Assembly (NCBI GenBank): GCA_048213135.1
Contig: PS015419.1
Coordinates: forward strand, 42,198-106,197
From: Reclinomonas americana ATCC 50394
Lineage: Eukaryota
DNA length: 64,000 nt
Reading direction: 5' to 3'
A model generated the notes under the pieces. It saw only the letters and a program-made list of their open reading frames with translations. It was not told where the DNA came from and did no database searches. The position numbers and the translations under genes are program-made. Of this stretch, positions 11,491-59,105 are shown in pieces; within the stretch, counting starts at the first letter, position 1, and each line of letters opens with the position of its first letter.

Positions 11491-14400
11491 ATGCTGGCGA
11501 CCGCGCTCCTCACCCTCCTCGGCCTCGTGCTCCTTCTCATCGTCTGGAAGGTGCGCTGTGTGTGTGACTGACCACCATGCATCCCTCCCACCCACCCACT
11601 CATCACATGCACACACCCACACACACACAGTTGATTCCAGTGTTTCTCACAAGTTGGCGTCTTCGCCACTTGCCCTCCCCTCCCGGTCACTGGCTCAAGG
11701 GCCACTCGTCCCTCCTCCGACTCCGTTGCGCACCCTCCATCCTCCACACACACACGCACACACTCTCTCACGCACACACATGCAGAACGCCATGAGAACT
11801 TCCGCGATCTGCAACGCAATGGCTTCCCCGACCTCGCTCTCCTCCGCATTGTCACCGTCCACGCGGTCGCTCTCTTCTCCCCACAAGCTGTGCACGAGGT
11901 TCTCAAGGACTACACCAAGTACCACAAGAGCAAGGCATTCTGGTGCGTTTTATTTAATGCCTGTCATGCATGCACTGACTGATCACTCTTTCCCGCAACC
12001 AAAGGGTTCTGCTGCGCCAGTTTGCCCCCAAGGCCCTCTTGCTCAACGAGGACAGCGAGTGGTTGCACACACGGTGCGTGCATGCAGTCGGATCTCGGAG
12101 ATGAGCGCTGACTGATGATCATGACACGTGTGTTGTCATGCAGGAAACTGTTGAACCCCGCCTTCTCCGATGTCAAGGTCTCCCTTCCCGCCCCTATGTC
12201 GACCAGTTCCTTGTCGACTCGCCTCTCATTCACCTCTCTCCCATGCAGCTGGGCGACCTGTTCTCGCACATCAAGGCCTGCGTCGACGAGCTCGTTGGCC
12301 AAATCCGTCGCCGACCGTCGGAGATCATTGTCGCAGAAGACAGTGCGTCCCCGCCACTCACCGCCCCAGTGTCTTGTGTCTGCTTGGTGCCCATGATATT
12401 CCTGTGTCGGCAGAGATGGCCGACTTTACGTACGAGGTCATCATGCGCTCCACGTTCTCCGAAGAGTCGCCCATTGGTGAGTTTTCTGTTCAACTATTTG
12501 TGACAAGTCGCTCGTTCTCACTCCCCCCTCTGCAGGCGGCAACCCCATCAAGGGCGCTCTCGACAGTGTGTTGCGTTTGCCGTTGAGCATCCTCCATGTG
12601 CTCGTTTGCCGATGGCTCATATACTTCCCTGTGCAGGATCAAGGAGTTGAGGCCTTTGTGGTGCCTTGGTGTTGCGGTCCAGTTGATTGATGCTCATCTC
12701 ACCGCACAGGTTCGAGTACCGCTTCCAGTCCCTGATTCCGTTCTGGAGGCTCATTGAGACTGAGCGCGACAGGTGCGAACGCGCCATACGCTCTTCTCAT
12801 TCTCAACTCTGTAATTCTCTTCACTCTTGCTCTCCTCCTTGTCTCTCGTCACTCTCTCTGTCTCTCTTCACTCTTTTTACCTCTCGTGGGCACCTTCGCT
12901 GCATCCCGTCCTCTCTCTCCCTCCCTTTTCCACTCTCTTCCCTTTCCCTCTCCCTTTCTTCACTGATTCGGTTTTCACTCCTGCTCTCCTTGTCCTTCAT
13001 TCTCCGTGTGCATCTTTGCTGCATCTGTTTCTCTCCTCTCTCTCTTTCTTCACTCGCTCTCTCTTTCTATCCATCTTTCTCACTCTTCACCAAACTTCTC
13101 TCTATTACTGTTTCTCTTATTCTCTCCTTCATTATTCTCCCTCGGCATTTCGTAACTCTTGCTCGCCATGTCTCTCTTCCCTCTCTTTTCCCCCTGTCGT
13201 GGGCACCTTCGCTGCATCTTTCTCTCTCTTTTATTATTTCTCCCTCTGTCTCCCACTATTCACTCTCGTTTTCCCTCGCTCTCCATATCTCTCTTCCCTC
13301 TCTGTTCCAACTTCGTGGGCGCATTCGCTGCACTTCTCTTTCTTCCTTCTTTCTTTCTCCGTCTCGCTCTCTCCACTCTCGTTTTCCCTCACTCTCTTCC
13401 TTCTCTGTTCCCCCTCTTGTGGGCACATTCGCTGCACCTCTCTTTCTTTCCTTCATTCTTTCTCCGTCTCGCTCACTCCACTCTCGTTTTCCCTCATGTT
13501 CTCCTTGCCTCCTTTTACGCCTTCCCTCTCCTTTCTGCCTCTTTTTTTCTCACTCTCTCTCTTCTCCCTTCTCCCTCTTCACTCCTTCCCTTTCTCCCCC
13601 TCTCCCTCTCCATCTCACTCTTCTCCCTTCTCCCTCTCAGGGAATACAAGCGACAAACCAAGATGGCCGCCGAGTACTTTGACGAGCGCATCACTCGCCG
13701 CCTCAAGGAGGACGCCAACCACCGCGCCGGGCGCACCACCGATCTGCTGGATTTCATTCTGGCCACGCACGACGAACTGCAGGAGGGAGTGTCACTGGAC
13801 TGGGTATGTCTTCTTTGCGATGCATGCATGCGTGCCGCACACGTCTCACTCCACAGCGCAGATCCGCGACCAAGTGTTCATCTTTGTGCTGGCCGGCCAG
13901 GATACCACGGCGGCGGCGCTGTCGTGGGCCCTCTACAATCTCGCCTCTCGTCCGGCCATCATGGCCAAGGTGCGTTCCGCGTTGGTGATGGATGCGTGCC
14001 GGTCACGCCTCCTTACACTTTCGGTTGACTGCTGCAGGTGCGAGCGGAGGTTGACGCCGTGTATGGCTCGCGGGATGCGCTCGCCTACGAGGATCTCAGC
14101 AAGATGACGTACCTCGACGCGTTCATTCACGAGAGTTGAGTCTGCCGTCCTTCATACCTTGCAAGAGACGCTGACGCACGCATGCACAACAGACATGCGA
14201 CGCTATCCACCGGCGCACGCATTCAATCGCCAAACCACGGTCGACTCGGAGCTGTGTGGCTACAAGATTCCGGCCAACACCACGCTCCTGATCGCCGCCT
14301 ACACCATTCTCAATCTCGAAGAGTACTGGGGACCCGATGTACTTGAATTCCGCCCCGAGTTGCGCACACCGCGCAGCGCACAATACTACAGTATTGCCGT

Positions 14401-14796
14401 GGCCTTGGACTGAAAATCTTGTGTGCAGACGGTGGCTGGACGAGTCGGGCTCGATGAAGTACCTGCCGCTGATGTACAGCCTCATTTTCTCGCATGGCCC
14501 GCGTGTGTGCATTGGTTCGTCGTCCACCTGCAACGAGATATGAACAGCCGCAGCTCACGTGTGCGATTCGGTGTGCAGGTGCGCGCTTCTCCCTGGCCGA
14601 GCAGCGGCTCTTCCTCGCCACGTACGTCGCTCTGTCGTCGCCATTGTCACCACACTCGCCTGAAAAACGCTCCCGCAGACTCGTGCACGAATTCGACATT
14701 ATCGACGAGAACAAGACACCGCCCGTGGCCACTCCAAAATTCACACTGCGCAGCCAAGACGGCATCCGCGTCTCGTTCCGCCCGCGTCGCCGTTGA
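11491..14796 (+). CDS. Cytochrome P450 (clan 3/4-like), more than a dozen exons
   Basis: N-terminal anchor MLATALLTLLGLVLLLIVWK, RKLLNPAF, I-helix FVLAGQDTTA, ExxR (ENMR), PERW, heme motif FSHGPRVCIG. All checked junctions are GT-AG. Confidence 0.95.
12773..13640 (+). repeat. Expanded CT-rich P450 intron containing minisatellite units
   Basis: gtgggc(a/g)c(c/a)ttcgctgca recurs at ~12886, 13199, 13315 and 13419, with a degenerate copy at ~13007. Confidence 0.85.
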
Positions 14797-14845
14797 CAGC
14801 AACACAATGCAAATATAGCGTCCTTATTTCCATTCATAAAAATGA

Positions 14846-16094
14846 TTACAGCAATGTACACGGTCGTTTCTTGTGGCCTGTGGTCTCCGGGGGCGCCTCG
14901 GTCTTTCGAATCATGCTGTGAAGTGGGAGGTCAGCATCGGAGAAAGACCAATCCCATGTTGTTCGTCACTCACCGCACAATCTCCGCAAACACCTCCTCC
15001 ACGTTCTGGCCGGTGAGGGCACTCGTCTCAAAGTACGGAGCATTGATCTTCGCGGCGTATTCGCGACCCTGCACTCTCACAACGGATGGTGAGCTGCCGA
15101 CAGACGCACAAATGCTGCGCGATTTCGTCACACCTTTTCCTCCGAAATGAGTCGCTCGCCGAGATCCTATCAAACAACAGTGAGAACACACAAACACGCA
15201 GCAAGTGGATTGATCTGAAGACACGTACGCAACGACTTTGTTGGCCACCAACACGACGCGCGGCTGCGGTTCGTCGAGTGCGTTGACCAGCATTTCGTGG
15301 AACCTCTCCAACTCAGCGAATCCGTACTGCAACCACCGCCCATCAGCAACGAGGAGGAAACGAGAGCGAGAAACACGGCAGACAAACCTGATCATTCACC
15401 GCGTACACGAATATGTAGCCTGGTCGAAGCCATGTGAGAACATTACACAACTTGAATGCGAAGGCAGAAGCCTATTCCTCTAACCTTGTCGGTTCTTGAC
15501 CCAGTGCGGGAACTGCAGCATACGAGGTGAGCGCCATGTGCACACACACAAGTGCCACGCAGTGGCATGAACTCACCAGACTGATAAATGCATCCTGGCC
15601 TGCCGTGTCGAGAATGTCGAGCCTGCACACGCGATTGTCGATCGACACTTGCTTGTGGTGCACATCCTCGACTGCACAGAGGGAGACACACGAACAAGTG
15701 AGCCGCGCCACACGCGCCACACACCGACTCCGGCAATCATAATCAACAAACGCACACGAACCCGTCGGATCGTACTGCGCAGCGGCCACCGTGAGCACCA
15801 GCGCACAAACTAAAAAACGGACGCTCACGACACACACACCTCCTCAACAAACAACTTGCGCACATATCGCAACGTCAATGCCGACTTGCCGACACCACCA
15901 CTGCCCCACGCAAAACCCTGTCAGAGCGCACATCATGCACCACCACACAAAGCGCATCACCGCACCTGCCCAACACCTGCACAACAGACACACAGAGTAA
16001 GTCTATGACATACAGAAAGCAGCTTGTGATCGCCAGACACAACACACACCGTCAGCCTGTACTCCCGGACTGCTCTCGGAGCATCATCACTCAT
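14846..16094 (-). CDS. Ras/Rap-family small GTPase with CAAX box (possible Gly-rich N-terminal extension to ~16277)
   Basis: Spliced product REYRLT|VLGS|GGVGKSALT...FVEE|YDPT|VED...DTAGQ...VANK...ETSAL, ending KKRPCTLL*. Confidence 0.93.
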
Positions 16095-17144
16095 TGTCAG
16101 CCACTCATCACCACGAGAAGCACACACAAGCACATGCACGCAACATCCAGCACCACCCTTGCTTCCACTCGCCCCAGCACCACCGCCACCACCACCACTG
16201 CCACTCGCCGCACTCGCACCCGACGCACTCGCCTCCCCACCACCACCACCACCGCCACTGCCACCGCCACCGCGCATAAACTCCTCACCTGTCATCATAT
16301 AAGCCAAAGACACAAGAGAGACAAAGAGAGACACACACGCTCTCTCTCTCACACACACACACACATCCCACACNNNNNNNNNNNNNNNNNNNNNNNNNNN
16401 NNNNNNNNNNNNNNNNNNNNNNNNNNNNNNNNNNNNNNNNNNNNNNNNNNNNNNNNNNNNNNNNNNNNNNNNNNNNNNNNNNNNNNNNNNNNNNNNNNNN
16501 NNNNNNNNNNNNNNNNNNNNNNNNNNNNNNNNNNNNNNNNNNNNNNNNNNNNNNNNNNNNNNNNNNNNNNNNNNNNNNNNNNNNNNNNNNNNNNNNNNNN
16601 NNNNNNNNNNNNNNNNNNNNNNNNNNNNNNNNNNNNNNNNNNNNNNNNNNNNNNNNNNNNNNNNNNNNNNNNNNNNNNNNNNNNNNNNNNNNNNNNNNNN
16701 NNNNNNNNNNNNNNNNNNNNNNNNNNNNNNNNNNNNNNNNNNNNNNNNNNNNNNNNNNNNNNNNNNNNNNNNNNNNNNNNNNNNNNNNNNNNNNNNNNNN
16801 NNNNNNNNNNNNNNNNNNNNNNNNNNNNNNNNNNNNNNNNNNNNNNNNNNNNNNNNNNNNNNNNNNNNNNNNNNNNNNNNNNNNNNNNNNNNNNNNNNNN
16901 NNNNNNNNNNNNNNNNNNNNNNNNNNNNNNNNNNNNNNNNNNNNNNNNNNNNNNNNNNNNNNNNNNNNNNNNNNNNNNNNNNNNNNNNNNNNNNNNNNNN
17001 NNNNNNNNNNNNNNNNNNNNNNNNNNNNNNNNNNNNNNNNNNNNNNNNNNNNNNNNNNNNNNNNNNNNNNNNNNNNNNNNNNNNNNNNNNNNNNNNNNNN
17101 NNNNNNNNNNNNNNNNNNNNAAGCGACGACGTATGCCCCTTTGC

Positions 17145-20100
17145 TTACTTTCGGGGCTTGCGGCACACGGAGCACCCTGCAGGGGACGTGCATCATTGAG
17201 TTTTTTTCGTTCATCGTGCACACAAGTGTGGCATGACAGACGCAACCGAGGCAGTATTCTTGGCCATTCGGGGCATGCTGTGTGTGTGGCTGTGTGGTGA
17301 GCACATCGACAATGACCACAACGACGATTACGGCAACACACGACAAACCGCCACGCCCAGCGGGCACTCCTCCACGCCAGGGCACTGTGGGAGTCAATAC
17401 CATGAGTCGGCGGACGGGATCACAACTTGCGAGGAGTGGTGGCGGACGCAACATCGTAGACCTTGTCGTCGAGAATGTTGTGGCAACGCTCGCAGAAATC
17501 TACACGACGCGATGAAAGTGAGTCACGCATGTTTTGCACAGGGGAGGCATGCAGACGGACGCAACGGCTGTTGACAGAATGTGGAAGGGTGAGAGGAACA
17601 ACACACACGCGAGGGTCAGCAGACAATTCACAGGGAATGCAGATGGTACAAGAGATAGCACGCACGTCTGTGCAAATGAAAAAGCAAAGGTGAGCAACTG
17701 TCAGCACACTCATCCCCCAAACAAATGCACTCAACTGTCTGCAGCATGGTGGTGGCAACAATGACAAAAGAGAGCAACAACACGTGAGATTACCACTCAA
17801 AGCACAATGCACACAACAAGCAGCAAGAGAGCGCACCCCGAAGCAGAACCACACTGCGAGGGGAACAACCATCACGTTAGCGTACCCTTCTTACGTAGAA
17901 ACAGAGAAGACAAGACAAACCGGCAACGCTGCAGCAGAATCTGTTCAAAAACACACAGTAAATCACAATGTACTGCAACGGCAACGCGAGAATGCAACAG
18001 CAACGCAACTTGCACTGTGGGGGTGGCGAGAAAAGGAAACAGAAGGCGCACAGAAAGGTGAACACAGCAGAATAGACAAACACAACATGCTGACATGGCA
18101 GGCGGACCTTGAATTGCACTGCACGTACATTCTCTCCGTCAGTACACTACCACACACGACGATAATGCCAGCACACAATCGTACACACACACGCACCGAA
18201 ATCCTTTCCGTGGATCTTGCAGTTGCCAGCGTCGCCTGCGACGCAGCTGCTGCACACCAGTTCACTCTCGTCAAAGCTCGCCGCTCCCGCAGCGCCACAC
18301 ACACGCTCGCCACCAAAGTACGGCTCGCGGCACTTGTGGCACTTGTAAAAGTTGTAGCTGCCGCAAGCGGGTGAGTGACGCCACGCAGGAAGAAGAAGAG
18401 GAGTAAAATGAACAGTGCACACCGATGGAGCGCGAAACCGAGCGGATCGTTAAAGTATTGTGACATGGGGTTGCCGAGCTCCTCACAATCCTCCAGTCCA
18501 TCAGCCGCCAACTGCTGCAGTGCCTTGTTCTATCGTGACGAGAGCAAATGCACTGAGTCTCTCCGTCCATGAATACACATACACGAAACACTGGATTGCG
18601 CACCTTGACATTCTCAAACAGCGCTCGCACCGGCGCCAACTCCTCGGTAAGCATCGGGTGATCCAGGTCGGCCTTGCACAGAGAGCACTTGGAGAACGAG
18701 AAACTGATCGCCGGACCTACAAACCCGTGACCTCTCTTGTCAGAACAGCTGACAAACAACTCCATCCTCAAAGTACAAACTCATCACCGTTCCACTTGGA
18801 GGCCACCTGCATGGAAACGCAGTCCTTGTGGAACACATGTCCGCAAGTCAGCCGAATGCTTGGCGCACACCGCAGCGGCTCGGCGTAGCAGATGCTGCAG
18901 TAGTCGTCTTGATCCTGCGGGGGAAATAGCAGCGGATCAGTCTCTCTCACCCGCACTGTGTTTGTCATTTTCTCCCATTTCATAGCCTGCCATTCTGTCA
19001 TTTTCTCACACATGGATTCCCAAACACTCGCAGACACCTCGTACTCCCAAACTGTACTGTGTGCGCAAATGTGCATTCTTTCTCTCTGCTGACAGCAACA
19101 CTCTCATACACGTCACAATAAGCGTCTTACTCGTACTCTTCTGCCTCTCAATCTCTTGTGCGCATACGTGCATGAACATGCGTCTCTCTCTCTCTCTCTC
19201 TGCATTCGTATGTCATTGTCTCCCCTATGTAAATTACTGGCTGCAACTGTCTCTCTCTATTCTCTCTCGCTCTCTCTGTNNNNNNNNNNNNNNNNNNNNN
19301 NNNNNNNNNNNNNNNNNNNNNNNNNNNNNNNNNNNNNNNNNNNNNNNNNNNNNNNNNNNNNNNNNNNNNNNNNNNNNNNNNNNNNNNNNNNNNNNNNNNN
19401 NNNNNNNNNNNNNNNNNNNNNNNNNNNNNNNNNNNNNNNNNNNNNNNNNNNNNNNNNNNNNNNNNNNNNNNNNNNNNNNNNNNNNNNNNNNNNNNNNNNN
19501 NNNNNNNNNNNNNNNNNNNNNNNNNNNNNNNNNNNNNNNNNNNNNNNNNNNNNNNNNNNNNNNNNNNNNNNNNNNNNNNNNNNNNNNNNNNNNNNNNNNN
19601 NNNNNNNNNNNNNNNNNNNNNNNNNNNNNNNNNNNNNNNNNNNNNNNNNNNNNNNNNNNNNNNNNNNNNNNNNNNNNNNNNNNNNNNNNNNNNNNNNNNN
19701 NNNNNNNNNNNNNNNNNNNNNNNNNNNNNNNNNNNNNNNNNNNNNNNNNNNNNNNNNNNNNNNNNNNNNNNNNNNNNNNNNNNNNNNNNNNNNNNNNNNN
19801 NNNNNNNNNNNNNNNNNNNNNNNNNNNNNNNNNNNNNNNNNNNNNNNNNNNNNNNNNNNNNNNNNNNNNNNNNNNNNNNNNNNNNNNNNNNNNNNNNNNN
19901 NNNNNNNNNNNNNNNNNNNNNNNNNNNNNNNNNGAGTGGCAGGGCCTGCGGCGCTGGCCGAACCCGCGGCGCTGGCCGCTTGCAGACGCCGAGTGAGGCG
20001 CTCGCGGAGCGACGATGGCAACCCTGCAGGCAGAGTGAGACTCCACAAGTAACGCAGCAAGTTTTCCATTTTCCCTTCAAGAACGCAACCAGGCAACATG

Positions 20101-23100
20101 AGTCCACTGAGGCCGGCCCACAATGCCGGGGACGACTCGGGCGAGGCTTCGACCGGCGAAGCGTCGCACAAGACGGGAACTGCCGACAACGCGGCCATCA
20201 TAAAGTCGACAAAGGCGTCGGCCCAAATCTCCGAACGACCGAGAATGTCGACAAGCAGGCGGGCAATCTGCAGATGGGGGGAAAATTAAGCAGCTGTTCT
20301 CTCTTCCCCCCTCCCTACTTGCTCACCTCCTGCACAATGTCACGCGGAATGGCGGCTGTCATGCACAGCGAGGCTGCACTGCGCAGCATTGTGCATCTGT
20401 GATAACACGGTGAGCGTCGAGGGATACGGCAATCACAACCAAAAAAACAACAAGGCGACGGACCGCGAGCCCGACGACAACGGTCGCTGGTCACGAATTT
20501 CGCACACGACTGCTCGCGCCATGGACAGCAGGAAGAACTCCATCACGGTGGAGGCATCGACTGTGACCATCGAAGAGGTGACTCACATGACGACGGGGCA
20601 GCAGCATCAGCAGCACTTTGCGACACAAACTCACCAGCGTCACGCGCCGACGGAGGGTACAGCGAGCGCAGCGCCTTCACCACGTCGTGGGGCGAGCTCC
20701 ACAGCATCGCTCGTCGCAGCACATTCAGCGTGCTGCGCTGCACACGCGCGGTGTTGCTGCCGACCAGCGTCTCCAGCAGCGTCTGAATGCTCAAGGCCTG
20801 CGGCAGCAGCTTCTTGCCAGCGGCAGTGGCGCTCAACAGCTGCAGCACGCTGACGAGCTGGAACAGTGACGAGTCATCGCTCTCCAGCAGTGGTTGCAGT
20901 TGCAGTGCACTGTACACACGCAGATGGGAAGGAGGGTGTCAACCATCACAAGTGTAGCAGCCAGCGACGCGGGGAGGAACTCGCAACTGCAAATCGTCGG
21001 CAACGTTCGACAGCGCATCACTCTCGTCGTTCAACACAATGCCCTTGGTGGCCATGGCCGCACGACGCGCTTCCTGCATCCATTGTGAGCACACGTGTTA
21101 TCCCACTGCCTGTCTCGCAAGCGACGAACCTGCGCCTTGATACGCATGCGCACGAAATTCTCTTGCTCCAGCAGCGAGTACGCCGCACTGTCCTTGTACT
21201 GCGAGGCGCGCATCTGTTCGTACGAGACGTGGATCGGGAAGCCCGACTCGTCACCAAGCTGAACGGCCCACTCAAAGTACTGCTCGTTCACAGAGTCCTC
21301 CATGAGACCCTCGCGGATGCACAGCTGGAATCCCTGGTCCAGCGCCGACAACACGGTCGGGTACACGTCCTCCAGTGAGACGGCCGACGCATCTATACGA
21401 TTGATACACGATGGGTAAGTTGGCAAATTTAGTGAGTCGTACGCACAAACACAAAGAGAGAGGGGAAGAGAGGGAGAGAGAAGAGAAGGGAAGAGAGGGG
21501 AAGAGAGAGAGAGAGAGCAACATAATCACTAACATACACAGAAGGAGAGAGAGAGGAAAGAGAAGTGAAAAGAGGGCAAGAGAGAAACACAGAGAAAGAG
21601 AGCGCGCAATGCATTCACAGAAAGAGACTGAAAGGCGCACACACAGAGAGAGAAGAGAAGAGAAGCAGAGAGAGAGAGGGCAAGGCATTCACAAACAGAG
21701 ACTGCAAGATACAAACACGCACGCATACTATCCTTCCCTCTCTCTTTTTCTTTCTCTCATTTAAACGCACACTCAGTCCCTCTCTCTCACACACACATCT
21801 CTCATTTAAACGCACACTGTCCCTCCTCTCTCACACACACGCACATACACCATCTCTCCTTCTCCTTCTCCCGCCACTTCCCTTTCTCTCTCCCTTTCCC
21901 CTCTCTCACTCTCTCACTCTCTGCTCTCTCTCCCTCTCCCCCTTTCCCTTTCTCTCCCTCTCAATCTCTCCCTCTCCCTGCTCCCTCTCCCTCTCTCCCC
22001 TTTCCTTCTCTCCTCCCTCTCCCTCTCTCCCCTTTCCCTCTCTCCTCACTCTCCCTCTCTCTTCCATCTCACCAGCCGGGCCACGTTCTGCGGCGTACTT
22101 CTGCTTGGCGTAGTGAATAACTTGCGGGATGGTAAAGGCCGACATGGGATTCACGTTGTGATCGAGCGCGCCAAACTTGCGCAGCACACTTCAGCAGCGA
22201 AAGAAAAAAAGACAAAGCCATGTTAGAATGTGACGACTCGTTTTCCACGCGATCAATCAGCATCGCAACTAGTGAATCATATACGGCGGGAAGCCGCGAG
22301 TCACAATACGAGCCACGGCATCACCAATGTCGGCGGCCAGGACCTGCGGCGCAAAAATCAGTTCNNNNNNNNNNNNNNNNNNNNNNNNNNNNNNNNNNNN
22401 NNNNNNNNNNNNNNNNNNNNNNNNNNNNNNNNNNNNNNNNNNNNNNNNNNNNNNNNNNNNNNNNNNNNNNNNNNNNNNNNNNNNNNNNNNNNNNNNNNNN
22501 NNNNNNNNNNNNNNNNNNNNNNNNNNNNNNNNNNNNNNNNNNNNNNNNNNNNNNNNNNNNNNNNNNNNNNNNNNNNNNNNNNNNNNNNNNNNNNNNNNNN
22601 NNNNNNNNNNNNNNNNNNNNNNNNNNNNNNNNNNNNNNNNNNNNNNNNNNNNNNNNNNNNNNNNNNNNNNNNNNNNNNNNNNNNNNNNNNNNNNNNNNNN
22701 NNNNNNNNNNNNNNNNNNNNNNNNNNNNNNNNNNNNNNNNNNNNNNNNNNNNNNNNNNNNNNNNNNNNNNNNNNNNNNNNNNNNNNNNNNNNNNNNNNNN
22801 NNNNNNNNNNNNNNNNNNNNNNNNNNNNNNNNNNNNNNNNNNNNNNNNNNNNNNNNNNNNNNNNNNNNNNNNNNNNNNNNNNNNNNNNNNNNNNNNNNNN
22901 NNNNNNNNNNNNNNNNNNNNNNNNNNNNNNNNNNNNNNNNNNNNNNNNNNNNNNNNNNNCTCAAAAAAAAAAAAAAGACGACCGACAAGCACGCACCATG
23001 CTTGCGAGCCAGTTCCAGACGAGCACGTGCCTGTCGCATGGGGCGTGAGGGAGCATTACCAGCACACAAAGCAAGACATTGCTCACGACTCACCCGCTTC

Positions 23101-29100: not shown

Positions 29101-29535
29101 GTTACGGCGATGCTTGTTCTCGTGGCGGTCGCGATTCTGCGACTTGCTGTAGCCGCGGTAGCACGGCGGGTACCGGCACATGTAGCGACTCGGAGGCTCC
29201 AGCGAGCCCGACGCCGCCGCCAGCAGCCTGCTGCACGCCTCACGCACCGCAAAGCCGCGCATGTCATCCTCCGCAGACAGACGCGACACGTACGCATTGT
29301 CAACCACTCGACGTGTCTCATACGCTGCGCAGATGATGATGATGAGCCTTGATTTGGATGCATGCATGCACACACACAATGCACTCTCTGTGTGTGTGTT
29401 TCTCTCACCGCTCAGTGGGCGCAGAGGGTTTATGGGGTGCGGAGCAAGAAGCTCCGCGTACTGGCGGCGTTGCTCGTCGGTGACATGCAGCGGAATATCT
29501 AGCAATTGCGACAACACCTCTGTCAACGACGCCAT
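17145..29535 (-). CDS. MYCBP2: Giant MYCBP2/Highwire/RPM-1-like RING-Cys-relay E3 ubiquitin ligase (spans three gaps; 5' end approximate)
   Basis: C-terminal RING CSICYAEPL...[68 protein letters not shown]. An upstream ESPHPY...LDPRTCTA...WGF module at ~28000-28370 resembles a domain in MYCBP2. The C-terminal call is strong; continuity of the whole span is inferred. Confidence 0.8.
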
Positions 29536-29698
29536 GACACCTTACACACACACGCACACAGAGAGAGAAGCAGGAGAGAGAAAGCACACACACACACACA
29601 AAGGGGGGGAAGCGCGGTGGCGTGTGCGTGCCGATAAAAGTGAAAGTGTGTGAGTGGGGGGAGTTGTGACGCGAGAGGACATGTCGACTTCGTTGTGT

Positions 29699-31976
29699 TC
29701 ATTTTTGGAAGGGGTTGTGCTCCACCAGGTCCTCTTGTACGGCCTTGAGTTCGTGGTCGATCTCTCGGGCGTTGCGGTCGACCCACATCCAGATTTCCGT
29801 GACACGGCTGCGGTTTTGCTTGTGGTCGCGGTCGACCAGGCGGCGTCGCAATGCCTGGAAATTCTCCTCTTCTTGCTTGGCCAGCGAGTCATCCTGTACG
29901 GAGAGATGTTGAGAATGCGTGTGTTGGCTGGCCAGCTTTCCCCCTTGTACGCACCTTGTTGCTCAGCAACGAAAGGCGCGCGTCGTGGGCCACCTTGAGA
30001 AGTGTTTTCGCCACTTCCTTGTCGCGCAGCAGCTGCTCAAGGCGCGGTGAGATGCGTCTGCCATGAGTGTGACTGCGTCCGAGCTTCAACGTACCCCAAT
30101 ACCACGCTCCGACAGGCCGAGTTCCTGCAGCACCTGCTCGCCCTCCTCGGTCGACGCCTGGTCCATGCCCCACTGCAACCGCTTCTGCTGCTCCTGATAA
30201 AAGGCGTCCTCGTCGGCACGCAGATCCTCAAAGCTACGCGAGCAGTGAGCGCGCGAATGCAGACAAAGCAAGGGGGCAGGGAGCGCAACTTTCGGCGAAT
30301 CGCATCGACACACAAGTCACGCGTTTGCTCCATGACATTAATGTACTCGTCAATGACATTCTGCGCGTTGGTGGTGGCGGTGGTGAGAGACGCACCCGGG
30401 TTCATGCAAGGCACAGCCAGTGACTCACCGAGAACTGCTCGACACGGGTGACCTCCATCTCCAGCAACTTGACCGTCATGGCCTCGTTCTCCTGCTTCAG
30501 TCGAATCAGTTTGGCCTCGTCCTCGGCCGGATCCGACGTCTGCGCCTTGACCTCCATCAAGATCTGTGCCGCAAGAGGCGGGGGCGTGAGTTGATGGACA
30601 CGGTGGAGGGGCTGTTGCATCTCCCGCACCTGTTTCAGTTCGCGCTCAAACGCCTTGATCATGGCCTTGGCGGCGGTGTTCTTCTCCTCGTTGGCCGAGT
30701 TGATCACGCTCTCAAAGTCCGCCGTCTCCAACTCCTTGTCGTGGTACAAGGTAAACATTTCCTCGGCCAGCGCATGCTTGGTCTCCTCAAACTTGGCGCG
30801 GTATCTGTGTGGGTGAGTGTAAGCAGACAGTTTTCGCCTTGACACCCGCACACACTGCACACGCAACGCTTCAGTGCACTCGACAAACAGCGTCTCCAGG
30901 TCCTTGTAGCGCGGGTCGGCATCTTCGTCAAACATGTAGCGGAACAGCGTGACAATGCCCGCCATGTTGACTTTCTGTGATGTGGAATGTTGAGCACCAC
31001 ACTTGCGTCATCATCTCTCCCGCACTCCCAACGCAACTTCGTACTCGGCCTCCTCCTTGGCCACCTGCTTGGCACGCTGCCGATCCTCCTTCTCCGTCTG
31101 GTCCTGCTCCTCGAGGTTGAGCACCAGGTTGATGAAGCGATCGCGCGCCTTTTCGAACTTGGCCCCGTCCACCAGTCGGTAATCGAGGAAGCGCAGCTTT
31201 TGCAGGTGCACCAGAATAAAGGCGCTGCTGTCGGGGTCCTCGCAGAACGGATTGCCCTCCACCACCAGCAAGCGCAAGCGACGGAACCGTCGCAAGTAGG
31301 CCAACTGAACGAGAGAGAGACAGTTAGCAACACGAATGCCCCGTGTCTTGTTTCTCTTGCATACAAACCTCCTGATAGCTGGTCAGCTGATTCTTGCCGA
31401 GGGAGAGACACTCGAGCTTCTGCAACGAGTCCAAGTTCTCCACCTTCTTGATCTGATTCGAGTAGAGAATGAGGTCGGTGAGGTTGACGAGTGCCTCCAG
31501 TCCCTCAATCTTCTCAATCTTGTTGAACGACAGATCGAGCCACTCCAGCGTGGGGATGCTCGACAGCGCCTCGATCTTGGTGATCTCGTTGTTATCCAGC
31601 TGCAGCTTGCGCAGCGCGTGCAAGCCCACCAGGTTGCTGATGCGATGAATGCCACGAAACGAGAACATCAGGTGCTCAATGTCCTTGATCTCCATCTTCT
31701 CCTTCTGCTTCGCCGCCTCCTCCGCCTTGCGATCGACGCCTGCGCGGAGGGTGTCAGTGAGGCACATCACCACGGGCATGAGTGTGTGATGGATGAGCGC
31801 GCACCGAGAACAGCTGCTGCGCTGTCACCATCCGTCACCGTCGGCACAAAGATACACTTCATAATGAGGTCCTCGTCAATGACTGCGTATTGTGGTCGCG
31901 AGCCACTCCCGCCTGCGCCTCCCGCCACCACGACAGCGCCTCCACCAACGCCACTGGGCCCAGCTGCTGACGCCAT
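29699..31976 (-). CDS. DRC3: Dynein regulatory complex subunit 3 (LRRC48)
   Basis: VIDEDLIMKCI, SDS22-type LRRs (LRKLQLDNNEITKIE, WLDLSFNKIEKIEGL), LRR cap LRFLDYRLVD, helical C-terminus with NRSRVTEI. Confidence 0.88.
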
Positions 31977-32064
31977 TTGCTCTCTCTCTCGTACGATGAG
32001 GGACAATCACGGTTAAACGACCTGCGGGTGACGTCATCGATTGACGCATTGTGCGAGAGAGGAG

Positions 32065-33968
32065 ATGGACGCGGTGCTCGTCAATGTGCTGCTGCGCGTG
32101 TTTGTCGCGCTGTTCCCGCACTCTGGTGTGCTTTCCCCCCTTCTCTAACTCGCTCGTTTCTGTCCGCTCATTTGTTGAGAAAAGGTGAGGGACGGCCGCC
32201 GATGTTTGGAGACTTTGAGGCGCAGCGGCACTGGATGGAGGTGACTGTGGCACTGCCGCGGGAGCAGTGGTACGTCCACTCATTACCCGACAACGATCTG
32301 ATGTATTGGGGACTCGATTATCCGCCACTCTCCGCCTATCACAGTCTGCTCGCCGGTCACGTGTTGCGTGACACCCACCCACACACACGCACGCACAAGA
32401 CACTCACCCTCTCACATGGATGCCGACCTGCAATTCCTCTTTCATGTGTCAGCGCGGAACTGGTGGTTCCGGACTTGGTCGCCCTGCATTCCTCGCGCGG
32501 CCACGAGTCGCTCGCGGGCAAGGTCTTCATGCGAGCCTCGGCACTGATCGCCGACATTCTCGTGTACTTTGTCGCCATTCTCGCCTGCTGGCGCATCTTT
32601 CGGCATGTGCAAAAGTCTGTGGATCATGTGATTCCGCCGCGATCGGCTTCCCTATTTGCGCTGCTGGCGGCGCCGCCTCTCATCCTGGTGGACCACGGTC
32701 ACTTTCAGTACAATGCGGTGAGCCTGGGAGTGACGGCGTTGGCCTGCGCATTTGCTGCTGTGCATGCGGATGGACTGTGCGCGGTGTGCTTCACGCTGGC
32801 GATCTGCTACAAGCAAATGTCGCTGGCACACGCGCCGGCCTTTTTTGTGTACTTGCTGGCACAGTGTGCGCTGCGTGCCACGTGGAGCAAGCGGTGAGCC
32901 CTCGATCCTGTCTCCTGGGTATGCGTAAGTGGCGTTCTGATGGCGATTCAGTGTGATGCATTTTGCGTGGATTGGCGTGTGCACGTTGTCCACCATTGCT
33001 GTGTTGTGGCTGCCGCTGGCCAGCACCGCCGTGGACGTGCTGCATCGCATGTTCCCCGTCGGCCGTGGTCTCTACGAGGACAAGGTGGGGTGTAGTGTGT
33101 TGTCTGCGGAGCAGAGGCAGTGCCACTGACCGCACGTGGCAGGTGGCCAATCTGTGGTGCTCGATCGCGCCCTTCTTCAAGCTCAAGGACGTGACGCCAC
33201 TGTCCACGCAAGTGCGCGTGTGGTGAGTGACTGTTCCCACTCGGTCCACTTTCTTGCACGCTCATTACTTTTGGAACAGTCTGCTGTTCACGCTGCTGTC
33301 GATTGCGCCGCCGTGCCTGCTGCTGTGGCTCCGCCGACGGTGGCACGCCAGCGGCACGGTGCACCTTTTACGCTGCCTGATCATCAGCTCTCTCGGCTTC
33401 TTCTTGTGCGCCTTCCACATGCACGAAAAGAGCATTCTGCTGGTGGTGCTGCCGGTGACGCTGCTGCTGGCCACACCCGACTTGTCGCCCCTCGAACGCG
33501 CCATTTGCGTCTGGTTCATCACGGTGTCCACGTTCAGGTGCGTTGATGCTGTTGTGAGACCTCTTCAGCAACACTGGACTTACTCGAGCGCGCACAGCAT
33601 GTATCCGCTGCTGGAGCGTGATGGCCTCTCGGTTCCGTATGCCGTGCTGACCGTGTTGTGGACGTGGTGGCAGCGACGAGAACTCGTCTGCATTCGCTGG
33701 CTGTGTGTGGTGCGCGGTGATAAAGGGAGTGGGTTGCTTCTTTCTCTCTCATTCATTCTCCCTCTCTTCGTAACAGCTGTCGACAGTGGCCATGCTCACA
33801 CTGCACGCATGCATGGGTTTGCTGCGTGCACCGGCACGCTACCCAGACCTGTGGCCGTACTTGATCACCACGTGCTCATTCGGCCACTTTGCCCTTTTTT
33901 ACGTGTACCAACTGGTGCGCATGTACCGCGACACCGGCAGTGCCGACACCAAGGCCAAGGAACAATAA
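32065..33968 (+). CDS. ALG6: Dol-P-Glc:Man9GlcNAc2-PP-Dol alpha-1,3-glucosyltransferase
   Basis: PPMFGDFEAQRHWMEVT, YWGLDYPPLSAYHS, VDHGHFQYN, YKQM, RGLYEDKVAN, HEKSILL. Confidence 0.95.
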
Positions 33969-34090
33969 TTGAAAACACATTCTTGATAGACTCTTTATGC
34001 GACACGATCACAGAGAACAGGGAGGGAGAGAGAGAGAGAGGCATCACCAAGATGATGATGTAGAAGAGGGAACCGATCATGGACCCCCGC

Positions 34091-37000
34091 TCATGTACGG
34101 TTCTCGTCCTCTCGCACCTTGTAGATGCGTACCATCCAATGCTCTGTTGTGTACGCCTCTTCGAGGTATTCCATCTCGAATTCTTTGTGCCCGATTTCTG
34201 TACTCCGTACGCGATCCCAGCCGGTTGGTTTTCCTGTGGTGATGGAAAAACAAGTAGGTAAGCCACAATAGAACTCTACTTCCACACACAAACACGCACA
34301 CACACTCTATTGCCCTCGGCCTCTCCCGCGCTCTCTCTCTCTCTCTCTCTCGCTCGCTCGCTCGCTCGCTCTCTTTCCCTCTTCGTGACACTCACCATAT
34401 TCTGTCATGACCTCGCCGAATCGATAGTAACACATCTTGTACATCATGCTGTTGTGTAAGCGTGGCGGCGCGTCCTCGTCTACTCGATACTCGCCACGAC
34501 GACTGCGTACAGAGAGAGAGAGAGAGAGAAATACACAATGTGGCACTCAGTCACCGCGGGCCGTTGTGCATCACCTCCAAATGCACCCACACGCAACGTC
34601 ATGTAATCCGTGTCCTTGAACGACGAATCAATGGAGCCAGCGATACGAATCATCCACAAGAACTTGTTGATATCATCCGAGGCGTAGCCCGTCATGCCAC
34701 CGCACACCACCAGCACGTAGTCGACGTCGAGCGCACGCAGCACATTCAGGCCGACCTCCTCGGTGCTGGCAAACGCCTTGGCCACCGTGGCAATGTGCGT
34801 GTTGTTCCACGTGTTGTTATCGACAATGACGGTTCTGTTGGCCATACCCGATATCTGCGCGGCGATGACCGAGGATGGTGAGTTACGTGTGTGCGCGCGC
34901 GAGGGCGCAGGCCATCACCGGGGTGCCACGCAACTTGATAACCATAATCCCACCAACTCATAATCTTGGCATCGGGTGGGGTGTTGTAGCGGAGCCAGTG
35001 GTAGGCCTCACGGAAATCGTCGAAGATGATGCGGTTGCCGCGCATGCTGCGCGCCGCCATGACAATGGATGGCGACGAGTACGCCTCCGAGGTGACCCAG
35101 ATCGAGTGGCGCACGTAGAAGAAGAGCAGGAAGGTGATGAGGACGATCATGGCGATCGAGAGGAAGCGGTTCATGAACGGGCGCTCGACAGCGACGGCCT
35201 TTCTGCCCGCCGACGGGTCCACCACGTCATCGTCAGGGCCTGTACGAGGAGAGGCGAGTGAGGCGGGGAGATACAGGACAGAACTTATATCGTGGCCGCG
35301 CAGCTACGTACCAGTCTTAAAGACCCACATCAGATTGTTCATGCTCGAGGAGAGACCAATGCCAGCCAGCAAGCAGGCCACCGGAGCCAACACCAGCATC
35401 AAACGCACCATTACGCCGGCAAAGTACACACTGGTGACACCGTACAGGGCCAGGAAGAGCACGCCGTCGGTCTTTGGGTTCTCCCACGGCGTCTGGTAGC
35501 ACACGTACAGACCTGCGTGACGAAGCGCAGTCAGCGGCAATGCCAGACACCATAGATGTACACAAACGCTACGCACCAATGGGGAACAGGTACACGAGAA
35601 TGTGCAAATCAAAGAAGAACGACGCCCACGTGGTCGGCTGATGCTCGGACACGGAGGCGATAATGGGCACGTGGTCCTTGGCGTATGTCGGATCGAGCAG
35701 CGCGATGAAACGACCCGTCCAGCCCGGCGAGTCTGTGTGCACGCGTCAGTAGTGAGCAGTGAGGACATGGAGAGTGACCGTCGGGAGAAGGAAAACGCAA
35801 CAGCCAGTCAGGGCAAGAATGACAAAGAACAGCATGAACGACAGCATGAGCGCGCGGATAGTGGTGCGCGTGACACGCTCAAAGGCCTCGCTCGACAGGT
35901 GGCTGCGGAGCCAGCGCACGCCGCAGAACAGCTGCAAGCCGATGAAGGTGACCAGCGCCAGCAAGTGCTCGGAGCTCTGCACGGCCTGGAAGTTCACAAA
36001 GCGCACTTGCATGGAGAGCATCGTGCCGAGAATGTAGAACGAGGTGTAGGCCACGTAGAGACGGTTGGTGTACCGGCCGAACAGGATCATCAGGATCTGG
36101 GCGGAGAGGCAAGCGGGTGAGTCCACAATCGTCGCACGCACGCAGACGCAAATCTGTTTGAGTGTCGGCGACGCAACGACGTACAGCGGGATGAGGTTGA
36201 TGATGAAAATGTAGCCGCCCCACGCAAACACCATGTAGGCGTAGCCGAGGCAGCAGAAGGTGGACCAGAAGAGCGAGCCCGTGTTGACGGACTTGACCCA
36301 CAAGTAGAAGGTGATGTTCATCGCAAAGATCGCAATGGCTTCGTTATCGTACGAGCCGGCGACCGAGCGTGAAATGTAGCCTGCCAACAAACATGTGAGT
36401 CGCCACAGTGGAAGAGAGAGAGAGAGAGAGCGTGTACGCACCAGGCACAATGGCGAGGAAAGCGGCCGCAAACAGACCGGCCTTCTCATCGCGCACCTCC
36501 TTGCCGAAAAAGTAGGCGACCATCGACGTGTTGGCGGCGAAGACGGGTGCGAGGAACACGCACACGTTGCGCACGGACAGCGGGAAGGTGAGGAACGACA
36601 GGATGTAGTACAGGCCGGCGGCGGTCATCATCAGTCCTGCCGAGGAGAGGTGTGAGTGAGAGACAAAAGGAACAGAGTGTGCCGGAGATTCAAAACACAC
36701 CAGGGTACACGGTGCCGCCAATGATACGACCAAGCGGATACCAGCTGCGCACGACAAATGAGCACACAGGGACGAATGCACACGACACAGCGCACCACAG
36801 GAGCACAACCGACCTGGCATCGTCGAACCAGTTGTAGAACTTGTAAAAGCCCTCCTCGATGAGGAACTTGGTGGTGCGGAAGTTGAACCAGGGATCGAAC
36901 TATGCGCGGAAAGAGAGAGAACGTGTCATGCACACACGCACAACAACAGCGGCAGTGCTTGCTGGCAGAGCGAACCTCATGAATGACTGTATGCAATGCA

Positions 37001-37534
37001 CGCGCGCATGAGAATCGCAAGTCGCAAAGCAACGCATCGAGACAGACACATAGACAAACGCACCGCTCTCGTAGCGCAACACGGCAAACAGTCGCACCAT
37101 GAACGCTGCAGCGGAACAAGTGAGAAAGCGAGAGAGAGAGCGCGCACAGGCAGAGTGGACATGACCATGCCGCACTCACCCACGACGCAAATGAGACCGA
37201 GAATGAGCACTCGCAGCACGACTTCCTGCACACGCGCGCGCAAGGGAGAGAGAGAGCAAGCAAACGAGAGACCATCAGCGCCCAATGCAACGCGCACGAC
37301 GAAAGTGAGAGTAAGTGAGAAAGAGAACCTTGTGCTGATACGCATTCCATCCTGCACACACACGCATGCACACACACAGACGATCAGTGCATAGTGCATG
37401 ACACACACACGAGCAGCACACACACACACACCGTCTTCCAGGTAACCAATGATACCCTGCGACTGTTGCTGTTGTTGCTGCTGTTGCTGCGACTTGCTGG
37501 ACGAGGCCGCAACCACGCCGCCTGCTCCCTCCAT
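34091..37534 (-). CDS. STT3: Oligosaccharyltransferase catalytic subunit STT3
   Basis: [69 protein letters not shown]. Junctions checked are GT-AG. Confidence 0.97.
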
Positions 37535-37650
37535 TCACACAAAGAGGAAAGGAAACAACGCACACGCGCGACACAGAGAAGTGAGTGAGTGACAGAGAGC
37601 TCGAGACAGACACGCGGAATTTTCATATCGTGTGACGCGAACTTGGAGAC

Positions 37651-38652
37651 ATGGTGGTGCGTGTCTTATGCATACTCTGCGCCTTTGCTCTTGCTGCTGG
37701 CCATGAGCCTCTGCGCGCGCGTGTGTGTGTCGCTCTGCGTCTGTGTTTATTTTTGCGCGTGGCCATGCTGACATGTCACGCACTCTCTCTTGTTGCTCAC
37801 ACACACTCGCGCGCTCGCAGTTTGTGCTTGTCATTGGCGATCTGCACATTCCGCATCGCGCGGCCGACTTGCCTCCGACATTCAAGACAATGCTGGTCAG
37901 TGTTGCTCTCACACACACAACATGCAATTATCCGCGCGCTCACTCTTCACACACACAAGGTACCCGGCAAGATCCAGCACATTCTGTGCACCGGCAACGT
38001 GTGCACCAAGGAGGCCTTTGAGTACCTCAAGACCATTTGCTCCGACATTCACCTCGCAAGAGGCGACTTTGATGATATGTCTCTCTCTCTTCATTGTCTG
38101 TCTGCCTTCTTTCCACTCGCTCATACGCGTGTGTGTGAGCGCACAGAAGATCAGGGAGAATGTGCCAGAGTACGATGTAGTGACACTCGGCGGCTTCAAG
38201 ATTGGCCTCATTCACGGCCATCAGGTGGTGCCGTGGGGCGACAAGGAGGCACTGGCAATGTGGCAGCGCAAGCTCGATGTCGATGTGCTGGTCTCGGGGC
38301 ACACACATGAGGTGCAGAGCGTGTGTGTGTGGAGTGAGAGCAGCGGAGCAGGAAGGGGCGTTCTCATGCATCATTCTTGTCAGGTGCGTGCGTATGAGCA
38401 CGAGAAGAAGTTCTATCTGAATCCGGGATCGGCCACGGGTGCGTTCAGTGCATTGAGAAGGTTTGTTGGCGTCGTTGTTGTCGTGCGTGTGTATGTATGT
38501 AACGCTCATGGTGTGTGGGTGGCAGCGAGGCGGAGACAGTACCATCATTCATCCTCATGGACGTGCAAAATACGCAAATCGTCACGTACGTGTATCAGTT
38601 CGACAAGGAACTGGTGGTGCGCAAGAAGGTCTTCAACAAGGAGGAGGCGTAG
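37651..38652 (+). CDS. VPS29: Retromer subunit VPS29
   Basis: [62 protein letters not shown]. Confidence 0.97.
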
Positions 38653-38892
38653 GCTTGATCTCCTCGTCGCTTTTCTATGTTTTGTGTGTGTGCGTGTGTG
38701 TGTGTGTGCGGACTGGCTTCTTGCGCGTGTGCTATTGAAAAATGGAACCCTGTCTGCGTTTCTCTTGTCTTTCTTTTCTCTTTGGTTGTTGCATTGAAAA
38801 AACAGTTGAATGTCTATGCTACACACACACACGCGCGCTCTCTCGCTCTCTCTGGCACACACACGCACACAGTTTCGCTCACTTGCTGCGCC

Positions 38893-40851
38893 TCATTGCG
38901 GAACCTCGGGGTCCGAGTCATCGCTCTCCGACTCGGCCTTGCCCGACGACTCGCCCTCGTCGGCCTTGGGAGAGGCCGATGGTGGCGGTGGCAGGTACTT
39001 GCGCGCCCTCTCCTCCGCCTCCTCGCTGCCGAGCTCGCTGGGCCAGAAGGCCGCGTGGTGTCGCATCACTTCGCGGATGGTGACAGTGGTGCCCGGCTGT
39101 GCCTTCTCGCGCACGGTTTCGGCACTCAGTGGCTCCAGGGCGGCCGTCTGGTGCAACAGCTGGCGCACAGTGGCCTCGGCAGCCGCCGGAATGGCGTCCA
39201 GGTTGTATCCGCCCTCGAGTGCAACCACCACGCGACCCTGCAAGCATGCACGAGTGTGTCAGAATGCAGAAACAGCTGCTCTGTCTCTCTTGCCTTCCGC
39301 CTCAACATTCCATGCACAATACATGGCACCTGCTCACTATTCGTTGCCTTCTCCACCCCCTTCTCCCGGTGCCCCCCTCCCACTCCGCAACTTGCGCCAG
39401 AGTGAGCAGTCGGCTGGTCATGTAGGCAAAGCCATTCGGCGTCAGCTGGAACTTGCCGAGTGGATCACCTGCGGCGGCGTCGAACCCGGCGCTGACCAGC
39501 ACCAGGTCCGGATCGAAGCGCTCACACACTGGCATAATCACGCACTCGAATGCCGCAGCGTAGTCGGCGTCGCCCTTGCCGAGCTGCGTGAACGGAATGT
39601 TGATGTTGAATCCCTGGCCGGCGCCGGTGCCCGAGTCCGCAATGGCGCCGGTGCCCGGGTAGAAAAAGTCACCGTACCGATGCAGGCTCACAAACAACAC
39701 CTGTGTGTGTGTGTGATCCAATGAGAGGTGAATTCCCCCTTGTGCGACAACACAAGCCACGCAACATCGTCGCGATCCTCGAAACACTTTTCCGTGCCGT
39801 TGCCATGATGCACATCCCAGTCGATGATCGCCACACGCCGAGCCAAGCCCGAGGCGATGGCGTCCTGCGCGGCCACGGCCACATTGTTCAGCATGCAGAA
39901 TCCCTGCGCCTTGATCGGCTCGCAGTGGTGGCCGGGCGGTCGGATGATGGCAAATGCGTTGCTGTACTCGCCTTGCAGCACACGGCGGCTCAATTCCTGC
40001 GAGACACACATGTGCATGAGAGGCGGCCGGCTCTATTGCCGCCAACAAAACACCACGCACCACCACACTCCCGCACGCCAGCATGGCCGCCTGGTACGTG
40101 TTGGCGCTGTAGAACATGTCGCCGTTGACACGGAAGCCGAGATGAGCCGCCAGTCCCGACGCCAAGTCACCACTGCGACGCAGCGACGGACAAGTTGGAG
40201 TGAGAGAGGGGCTCGAAGACCGCAAGCGCCCTTTCTCACGCATTCACCAACAAGAAAGCAACAACTGTCTTGCCGATGAAGTCCAACCATCACGAAACTC
40301 TTCTTCCTCGTCAAACCACGTCGTCGACGACTGCAAGTAATCCACAATCGACGCATCGTGCACGCGCAGCACCTCCTCGCGCGTGGCCTCGCGCGCCGGC
40401 ATCCGCTGCATTTGCTCTGCGACAATAATCGCTGAGAGAGAGATTGACAGGCAGCACACTCGTTATCAATTGACGTGCGCGCACCCGTCAACCCGCACGC
40501 CCTCAGCCGCTCATGAATGCGCTCAATGCGCGCCGGGCACTCGGGATGCCGCGGTGGCCCCTGCACACTTGTGTCATGAGATTTACACAAGATAACTGAT
40601 CGATCTGTGTTTAACGCTCTCTCTGCGTGTGACCCTCCTCCTCTCCTCCAGCGCACCTGATGGAGCATCATACGCTCATCGAAGGCGTATCCAGTCGGCA
40701 ACTGCCAGGCGCGCAAGTCAACATCTTTGAGATCACGATGAAAAACGCGTGCACGTGACGATGACAAGGCACAGGCACAGGAGGAAGAGAAGGAGAAGAC
40801 ACGCAGTGGTGGTGGTGGTGGAGAGCGCGAAAGCCGTCCCCAATTGAACAT
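38893..40851 (-). CDS. Class II histone deacetylase (single HDAC6/10/Hda1-like domain; start uncertain)
   Basis: HPECPARI, RPPGHH, GFCMLNNVAVAA, DWDVHHGNGT, SAGFDAAAGDPLG, LEGGY. Confidence 0.93.
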
Positions 40852-58950: not shown

Positions 58951-59105
58951 CCCAACAGGAGATCTGCATGCTGCAGGCGGCCCCCACCGCGGCGTCTGTG
59001 GCCGTCTTCTCCACGCAACGGCGGACACACAAACAGGGAAGGAGGACACGGGTGACCGCAACTTCACACTTTTTCTCACTCTTCATTACCATCTTCACCC
59101 CCGCC

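Follow-up and report, generated by a model that had tools for sequence, protein, structure and literature searches.

Base pairing between U1 small nuclear RNA (snRNA) and the 5' splice site in noncanonical registers has been described in human, where the validated registers of this kind together account for 1.5% of 201,541 sites (PMC4856993), and a shifted (+1) register at atypical human 5' splice sites was reported by Roca & Krainer in 2009, as cited by Tan et al. in 2016 (PMC4856993). Further lineages are known from Roy & Bowser (10.1101/2022.06.08.495308): the U1 sequence AACAAAC of Entamoeba pairs with GUUUGU donors and the U1 sequence ACGUAC of Mastigamoeba with GUGCGC donors, and Thecamonas and the Mamiellales combine donors carrying C at +4 with a standard U1, so far as the excerpts of these two papers go. 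Here we describe a recurrent second class of 5' splice site in a window of 64,000 bases, the whole stretch of DNA that was analysed, from Reclinomonas americana ATCC 50394 (GenBank assembly GCA_048213135.1, contig PS015419.1, positions 42,198 to 106,197). Introns of this GTTG-type class begin with GTTGCG(T) and appear to carry the ordinary donor consensus of the window, as in GTGCGT, displaced by one position.

The window contains 7,679 N in 13 runs and has a GC content of about 58% of the called bases. A first-pass annotation had listed 17 GTTG-type motifs as donors and had taken them for a recurrent and major class. All 17 motifs are present, 14 of them on the minus strand and three (14135, 14359 and 32363) on the plus strand, and the class is real as judged by homology-defined junctions, strand enrichment and model-free tests. 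GTTGCGT has 34 copies on the gene-rich minus strand and two on the plus strand, with 6.9-16.7 copies expected on the minus strand under Markov models of order 1-4 (Poisson p=1.6e-10 for 9 expected copies and 1.3e-4 for 16.7). Its strand asymmetry ranks third among 7-mers, with only GT repeats higher. T is the only inserted base that is enriched, the counts on the minus and plus strands being 34/2 for GT-T-GCGT, 3/1 for GT-A-GCGT, 4/6 for GT-C-GCGT and 5/7 for GT-G-GCGT; a generic motif of GT, any base and GCGT was therefore rejected. As GTTGAGT (5/4) and GTTACGT (0/2) show no enrichment, the class does not repeat all ordinary motifs uniformly at +1. It is in essence GTTGCG(T), so that the earlier grouping of GTTGCGT with GTTGAGT stands for the former and for a real GTTGAGT donor at 14135, but not for GTTGAGT as an enriched motif.

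Junctions were scored with a profile built for each gene from fetched relatives, comparing all in-frame, stop-free pairs of a GT or GC donor and an AG acceptor around each exon boundary; no motif information was used. A GTTG-type donor was found in 12 of 27 homology-defined introns from six genes (STT3, HDAC, ALG6, DRC3, Ras and P450), a set that excludes the first intron of STT3 and the HDAC junction near 40265. Removal of the 12 introns, each with a GT start and an AG end, restores frame and homology. In all ten junctions where the alternative donor gtt|GC was listed it scored lower, and the cut before GTT, not gtt|GC, restores the NKxD motif of Ras, F-R-P-E-R-W of P450 and the 5-residue spacing of ALG6. 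CAG acceptors, CTCAC-like branch motifs and lengths of 55-95 nucleotides (nt) are common to both donor classes. In their ends, in frame and homology and in the branch-like motif, the GTTG-type introns thus look like U2-type GT-AG introns. As a U12-type candidate the class was rejected, neither the /RTATCCTT donor nor the TCCTTAAC branch site being present in the intron sequences and the branch and acceptor signals being those of ordinary introns. A family of introners or transposon-derived introns was likewise rejected, given that the copies have no consensus past +9. The most frequent 12-mer in common has 4 copies among the 34 minus-strand GTTGCGT sites; the 12-mer GTTGCGTGCTTG is found at four of them, 45623, 45428, 24253 and 24057.

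A codon-position Markov model, for which about 7 kilobases (kb) of exons supported by Pfam or by a hidden Markov model served as the training set, was used to separate coding from noncoding sequence. A transition from coding to noncoding was found at 19 of the 33 testable minus-strand GTTGCGT sites, compared with 18% of all GT (p=5e-7); GTGCGT, which occurs mostly within GT-rich introns, stands at 16%. CTSAY together with YAG 50-115 nt downstream accompanies 18 of the 33 minus-strand GTTGCGT sites, as against 835/3988 (21%) of minus-strand GT (p=2.5e-5), and in those 18 the CTSAY stands 8-33 nt before the YAG. A donor-neutral parser, to which all GT were equal, predicted 81 introns with GTTGCGT as the commonest donor heptamer (11/81). 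A self-trained parser with a first-order donor model predicted 154 introns, the leading donor hexamers being GTTGCG (27), GTGTGT (22), GTGCGT (15), GTGAGT (13) and GTTTGT (10); it took 24 of the 36 GTTGCGT sites for donors, most of the introns being 55-95 nt long, and missed the homology-supported GTTGCGT donors at 36177 and 15233. Known introns were recovered exactly in 5 of 14 cases by the donor-neutral and in 9 of 14 by the self-trained parser. With 12 of 27 homology-defined and 27 of 154 ab initio introns the class is a major one, as had been claimed. The share of 44% in the homology set is probably an upper estimate for the window because the genes are mostly those flagged in the first-pass annotation, and the parsers give 14-18% as a rough lower estimate, the 18% being rough because many of the GTGTGT 'donors' are probably repeat artefacts.

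The base before the cut separates the two classes. In the homology set, 14 of the 15 ordinary donors have G at -1, the fifteenth being a tie between 35311 and 35307 with G or C at -1, and none of the 12 GTTG-type donors does (Fisher p=7e-7). In the model-free set, defined by coding-to-noncoding transitions, 24 of 31 GTG[AC]GT sites have -1G and none of 19 GTTGCGT sites does (p=2e-8). When G|GTGCGT and |GTTGCGT are aligned from the right, the second base is the sole difference, and the joint 7-mer is G-[G/T]-TGCGT. The likeness continues downstream: position +8 of the GTTGCGT class (G17 T9 C7 A1) parallels +7 of the GTGCGT donors (G8 T3 A3 C1), and the +7 variants GTTGCGG and GTTGCGC parallel the +6 variants GTGCGG and GTGCGC. 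A T at +3 is not in itself diagnostic, as GTTTGT (31368) and GTTCGT (14515) are donors of the ordinary register with -1G. The motif thus marks exon ends, tolerates only T as the inserted base, has lost -1G and has its downstream preferences moved by one position. The loss of the -1G preference and the displacement of the intron consensus by one are as expected for a shifted (+1) register, which the sequences appear to follow, and the label of a +1 register shift given earlier fits.

We consider that the GTTG-type donors are probably a genuine and abundant class of GT-AG donor that forms one heptamer with the ordinary donors and is read by U1 in a single register. The 5' end of U1 would read G-[G/T]-T-G-C-G-T in one register for both donor types, with the first G paired to C9, the T in third position to A7, and the G and T of CGT to C4 and A3. 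The second base of the heptamer would form either a G:C8 pair or a U-C8 mismatch. The cut would be made before the first GT of the heptamer, a choice that presumably falls after the departure of U1 to a catalytic core needing GU at +1/+2. A heptamer with G as its second base would then be cut after the first G, as in the ordinary donors, and one with T as its second base one base earlier, shifted by +1. We infer from these patterns that the heptamer is read by U1, whose 5' end would be standard or nearly so, and that the cut is fixed by U6 and U5. Under such a shift +3 must pair with A7 of U1, and hence T alone would be tolerated as the inserted base.

Several observations weigh against this account. 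The six genes are mostly those flagged in the first-pass annotation, the sample is one 64-kb window, and all junctions come from protein homology or from statistics. The margin of the GTTG donor over the GC alternative is small at several sites, 2-7 bits, and 30867 ranks first only in a tie. G stands at -1 in 4 of all 36 GTTGCGT sites, and 17246, 20089 and 27322 among them look like donors. A is scarce at +8 and +9 (1/34 each), leaving extended pairing to U1 positions 2 and 1 unsupported. Placed in the catalytic register, the shifted class has no obvious +5G/+6U pairing with U6. The pairing scheme also assumes the standard U1 5' end AUACΨΨACCUG, as given in the excerpts of PMC4856993.

A dedicated or co-evolved U1 variant, with A for C at position 8 or with a 5' end complementary to GUUGCGU, would supply the lineage with two U1 paralogues, one for each donor type. 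The sole difference between the 7-mers does sit opposite U1 position 8, the frequency of the class (12/27 and 27/154) is too high for a tolerated weak variant, and the Archamoebae Entamoeba and Mastigamoeba provide a precedent for co-evolved U1 5' ends (10.1101/2022.06.08.495308, excerpts). The same source also has Thecamonas and the Mamiellales keeping a standard U1 despite their +4C donors, and one U1 would be sufficient here since only the second position differs between the classes; we therefore think a variant unlikely, though by no means negligible. The first-pass annotation had suggested either a variant U1/U6 snRNA or U1C or systematic bulged pairing, in which G+1 would lie on U1 C8, the U at +2 or +3 would be bulged and GCGU would pair as it does in GUGCGU. 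A register of this kind, bulge +2/+3, is documented with 68 predicted human sites, 54 after curation (PMC4856993, excerpts), and as it also needs U at +2 and +3 it would fit the specificity for T. It would, however, leave -1 opposite U1 C9, so that -1G should persist, and -1G was seen in 0/12 and 0/19 GTTG-type donors against 14/15 and 24/31 ordinary ones. The loss of -1G therefore favours a true +1 shift, in which G+1 takes the slot of -1G, and bulged pairing would come as a surprise.

Recognition might also be largely independent of U1 pairing, with U6 and U5, U1C or a lineage-specific protein reading the heptamer and the resemblance to a U1 site being incidental. The most invariant positions are +5/+6 in the ordinary and +6/+7 in the shifted class, which are also partners of the U6 ACAGAGA, and the exon side of the shifted class is almost without information. 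The complementary pattern of -1G is nevertheless explained most simply as an effect of U1 C9, and the shifted class would lose its U6 pairing in the catalytic register, which makes such recognition a distinctly improbable reading. To an artefact of the gene models we give hardly any credence. In that case the motif would stand for a GC-AG donor lying three bases further 3' (gtt|GCGT), for a UU-AG intron with its cut one base further on, or for an element unrelated to splicing. The GC alternative does preserve the frame and lies only about 2-8 bits below, and if both ends are moved by +1 only one base of the mRNA changes, so homology cannot tell UU-AG introns apart. As a candidate, gtt|GCGT was rejected because it scored lower in 10/10 junctions and would break NKxD, P-E-R-W and the spacing of ALG6. 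With UU-AG introns, both ends of which would be shifted by one, at most one residue of the protein would change (none in three of the four cases examined), but they were rejected because the CAG| acceptor common to the ordinary introns would be lost. A repeat family is contradicted by the lack of similarity past +9, and the sites lie at coding-to-noncoding transitions, which speaks against an element other than a splice site.

Ten introns were placed in STT3, on the minus strand, the top relatives of which are about 55% identical. Four of them start with GTTGCGT: 36097..36177 (81 nt, gtc|GTTGCGT, acceptor CAG, with a CTCAC branch-like motif; top junction with 254.4 bits against 250.9 for the GC alternative), 35733..35801 (69 nt, gct|GTTGCGT; top junction, 227.3 against 223.6), 34855..34934 (80 nt, caa|GTTGCGT; top junction, 283.0 against 277.1) and 34503..34597 (95 nt, gac|GTTGCGT; top junction, 202.6 against 197.1), the last three also being predicted ab initio. 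The ordinary donors of STT3 are GTGCGT (36441 and 35576), GTGAGT (34395), GTGTGT (36700) and GTCGGT (36813); the tenth is a tie between GTACGT at 35311 and GTAGCT at 35307. For comparison, the ordinary-register intron 36381..36441 (ctg|GTGCGT, G at -1) is the top junction with 226.1 against 184.0. The gene for an HDAC6-like deacetylase, also on the minus strand, has GTTG-type introns at 39701..39765 (65 nt, gat|GTTGCGT; top junction, 264.6 against 261.6) and 39238..39391 (154 nt, caa|GTTGCGG with +7 not T; top junction, 198.2 against 191.4), besides the ordinary donors GTGCGT at 40060 and GTGCGC at 40484.

In ALG6, on the plus strand, the alignment to the yeast protein (6snh) is interrupted at residue 132 and taken up again at 138, and removal of the 90-nt, in-frame and stop-free intron 32363..32452 (cgt|GTTGCGT...CAG) leaves exactly 5 residues between, which is the yeast spacing. 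DRC3, on the minus strand, has the 63-nt intron 30975..31037 (gaa|GTTGCGT; top junction, 100.0 against 98.1) and the probable 63-nt intron 30805..30867 (agc|GTTGCGT), which ranks first in a near-tie of 41.0 against 40.9; both were also predicted ab initio. The probable intron at 30867 lies where, compared with orthologues, an in-frame insert of about 19 residues begins. An ordinary-register intron of this gene that has T at +3, 31305..31368 (gag|GTTTGT, G at -1), is the top junction with 285.7 against 266.1, and the other ordinary donors are GTGCGG at 30629 and GTGCGT at 29954. A close relative is represented in public data by a Logan-derived protein of 277 residues (P0242) on a contig of 1,081 nt, which aligns to 31029-31746 on the minus strand of the window with 93% identity over a 100-residue query from the DRC3 LRR exon and about 90% in a longer tblastn alignment. 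Two introns are read through in its gene call, so that it yields no junctions. It follows the conserved EYE with V-R, the window with V-A, and therefore the donor of the relative at the position of 31037 is not GTTGCG. In the Joint Genome Institute metagenome scan no relative exceeded 58% identity.

The Ras-like GTPase gene, on the minus strand, contains the 67-nt intron 15167..15233 (gtc|GTTGCGT, acceptor TAG). The alignment to M-Ras stops exactly at ...LVANKV, the last codon ending at 15234, and joining to GAT at 15166 restores the NKxD motif. A second intron, 15133-15069 with the donor GTGTGA, presumably has these ends by reading and by comparison of length with a Ras sequence; a search of the PDB with one Ras open reading frame (ORF) found nothing. 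The P450 gene, on the plus strand, was scored with a profile built from 10 of 79 matches, the 10 being 390-570 residues long. Its GTTG-type introns are 14135..14192 (58 nt, aga|GTTGAGT; top junction, 55.0 against 44.7), a site without the gtt|GC alternative, and 14359..14428 (70 nt, cga|GTTGCGC; top junction, 58.2 against 50.7). They restore the spacing of E-x-x-R and F-R-P-E-R-W, respectively, and the ordinary-register intron 14515..14578 (ttg|GTTCGT with +3 T and G at -1; top junction, 22.9 against 13.1) restores the C-I-G haem loop. Further ordinary introns are 13970..14037 (aag|GTGCGT, G at -1; top junction, 90.4 against 82.2) and 13804-13861 with the donor GTATGT at 13804. As the P450 profile places these two introns inside it, the ORF 12815-14104 (+) of 430 codons is not one exon; its P450 matches are weak and cover residues of about 288-427, mostly 330-420.

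A further gene with GTTG-type motifs, on the minus strand, had been labelled MYCBP2-like in the first-pass annotation; RING is the only domain found in it with Pfam, and the label was not confirmed. Searches of the PDB with its exons gave one chance-level match to an unrelated peptide (E 0.076) and otherwise none. Taking 17565, 17452 and 17246 as donors gives, by reading alone, a frame-consistent chain of Cys/His-rich exons ending with TAA. The probable introns are 17500..17565 (66 nt, gcc|GTTGCGT, with CTCAC and an AG tail) and 17385..17452 (68 nt, gat|GTTGCGT, with CTCAT and a CAG tail), both with a frame-consistent reading, and the probable last intron 17177..17246 (70 nt, tcg|GTTGCGT, G at -1), after which the joined frame runs to the TAA stop. 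The GTTGCGT motif at 18003..18009 lies 5 nt 3' of an acceptor-like CCACAG and as a donor would imply an exon of 5 nt; the GTTGAGT motif at 17729..17735 lies 3 nt 3' of GCTGCAG and would imply an exon of 3 nt, and its frame was not reconciled. In this gene three GTTG-type motifs follow acceptor-like CAGs by 2-5 nt (18015-18009, 17739-17735 and 17568-17565), which could reflect microexons, nested or stepwise splicing, or coincidence. Across the 17 sites proposed earlier, the role as donor is thus firm at 11, weak at 30867 and a matter of reading at 17565, 17452 and 17246, and 18009 and 17735 may mark microexons or may not be donors.

The Pfam scans, done on the stop-free ORFs of the window, picture an intron-rich eukaryote with flagellar genes. 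The minus strand carries genes for a CytB561_N protein, IFT54/MIP-T3, RIB43A, two RING proteins, the Ras-like GTPase, DRC3, STT3, the HDAC6-like deacetylase, REX1B and a WD40 protein, and the plus strand those for P450, ALG6 and an actin-related protein. The genes IFT54/MIP-T3 (2707-3177), RIB43A (5943-8169) and DRC3 (29700-31900), all three ciliary or flagellar, lie on the minus strand within 30 kb, indicating that the organism is flagellated. Rfam gave no matches in the 64-kb window, snRNA included. The branch-point-like motif is mostly (A)CTCAC or CTGAC, 10-30 nt 5' of the CAG acceptor (e.g., in 36381-36441, 34855-34934 and 35733-35801, all on the minus strand). The introns are without a marked polypyrimidine tract, and CT, GA or GT dinucleotide repeats occur in many of them. 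Some are stop-free multiples of three, namely 32363-32452 (+), 30805-30867 (-) and 30564-30629 (-), and because of such lengths naive ORF calls (31971-32894 and 30405-31007) read through short introns. Two Pfam-blank regions of the minus strand, 44400-47300 and 59000-63750, have six GTTGCGT sites each, and 9 of these 12 sites are predicted donors of introns of 55-168 nt.

What is known of how the cut site is chosen after the departure of U1 comes mainly from a small number of human sites, engineered or rare. For the lineage as a whole we regard it as possible, though short of probable, that 5' cleavage uncoupled from the U1 register is the normal genome-wide mode, with G-K-UGCGU cut at either of two adjacent phosphates according to the position of GU and a fifth to two-fifths of introns cut at the shifted phosphate; in that case a displaced 5' splice-site helix would be tolerated by U6 and the catalytic core, or a second U1 paralogue changed at position 8 would have evolved. 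A routine shifted register, if true, would offer thousands of natural test cases for the choice of the cut site, and the U1, U6, U5 and Prp8 of the lineage could be compared with the standard ones. It could reveal whether a shifted site is weaker or more prone to alternative splicing, and how introns move between the classes, as a change of register by one base alters the reading frame. Gene finders with a donor matrix of fixed register would miss or misplace a large share of the donors in such a genome. Among the papers listed, the literature search found no description of GUUGCGU donors, though the class may have been published, for example in a genome paper.

The following comparisons with human sites and with the lineages of Roy & Bowser are made with the excerpts of PMC4856993 and 10.1101/2022.06.08.495308. 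U12-type and GC-AG introns resemble the GTTG-type class in forming a second class of 5' splice site beside the main one, but GC-AG introns are cut at GC, whereas the cut dinucleotide of the class is GT. The lineages of Roy & Bowser are similar to the ordinary donors of the window, which are GC-rich with +4C (GUGCGU) and tolerate +3U (GUUUGU and GUUCGU); they have a single register with changed bases, whereas the window has two cut positions on one recognition motif. The bulge +2/+3 register (Roca et al. 2012; PMC4856993) shares U at +2 and +3, followed by the normal consensus displaced by one, but keeps the exon-side pairing of -1G that the class has lost. With the human shifted (+1) register the class has in common an intron starting with GU and, on the reading proposed here, U1 contacts displaced by one, with G+1 in place of -1G and a cut not set by the U1 register. 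The human test site (PMC4856993, Table 2) has two mismatches after G+1, whereas in the class +3U would restore the pair with A7, and what is a rare exception in human is in this window a large share of introns, about 18-44%, with the tight consensus GUUGCGU.

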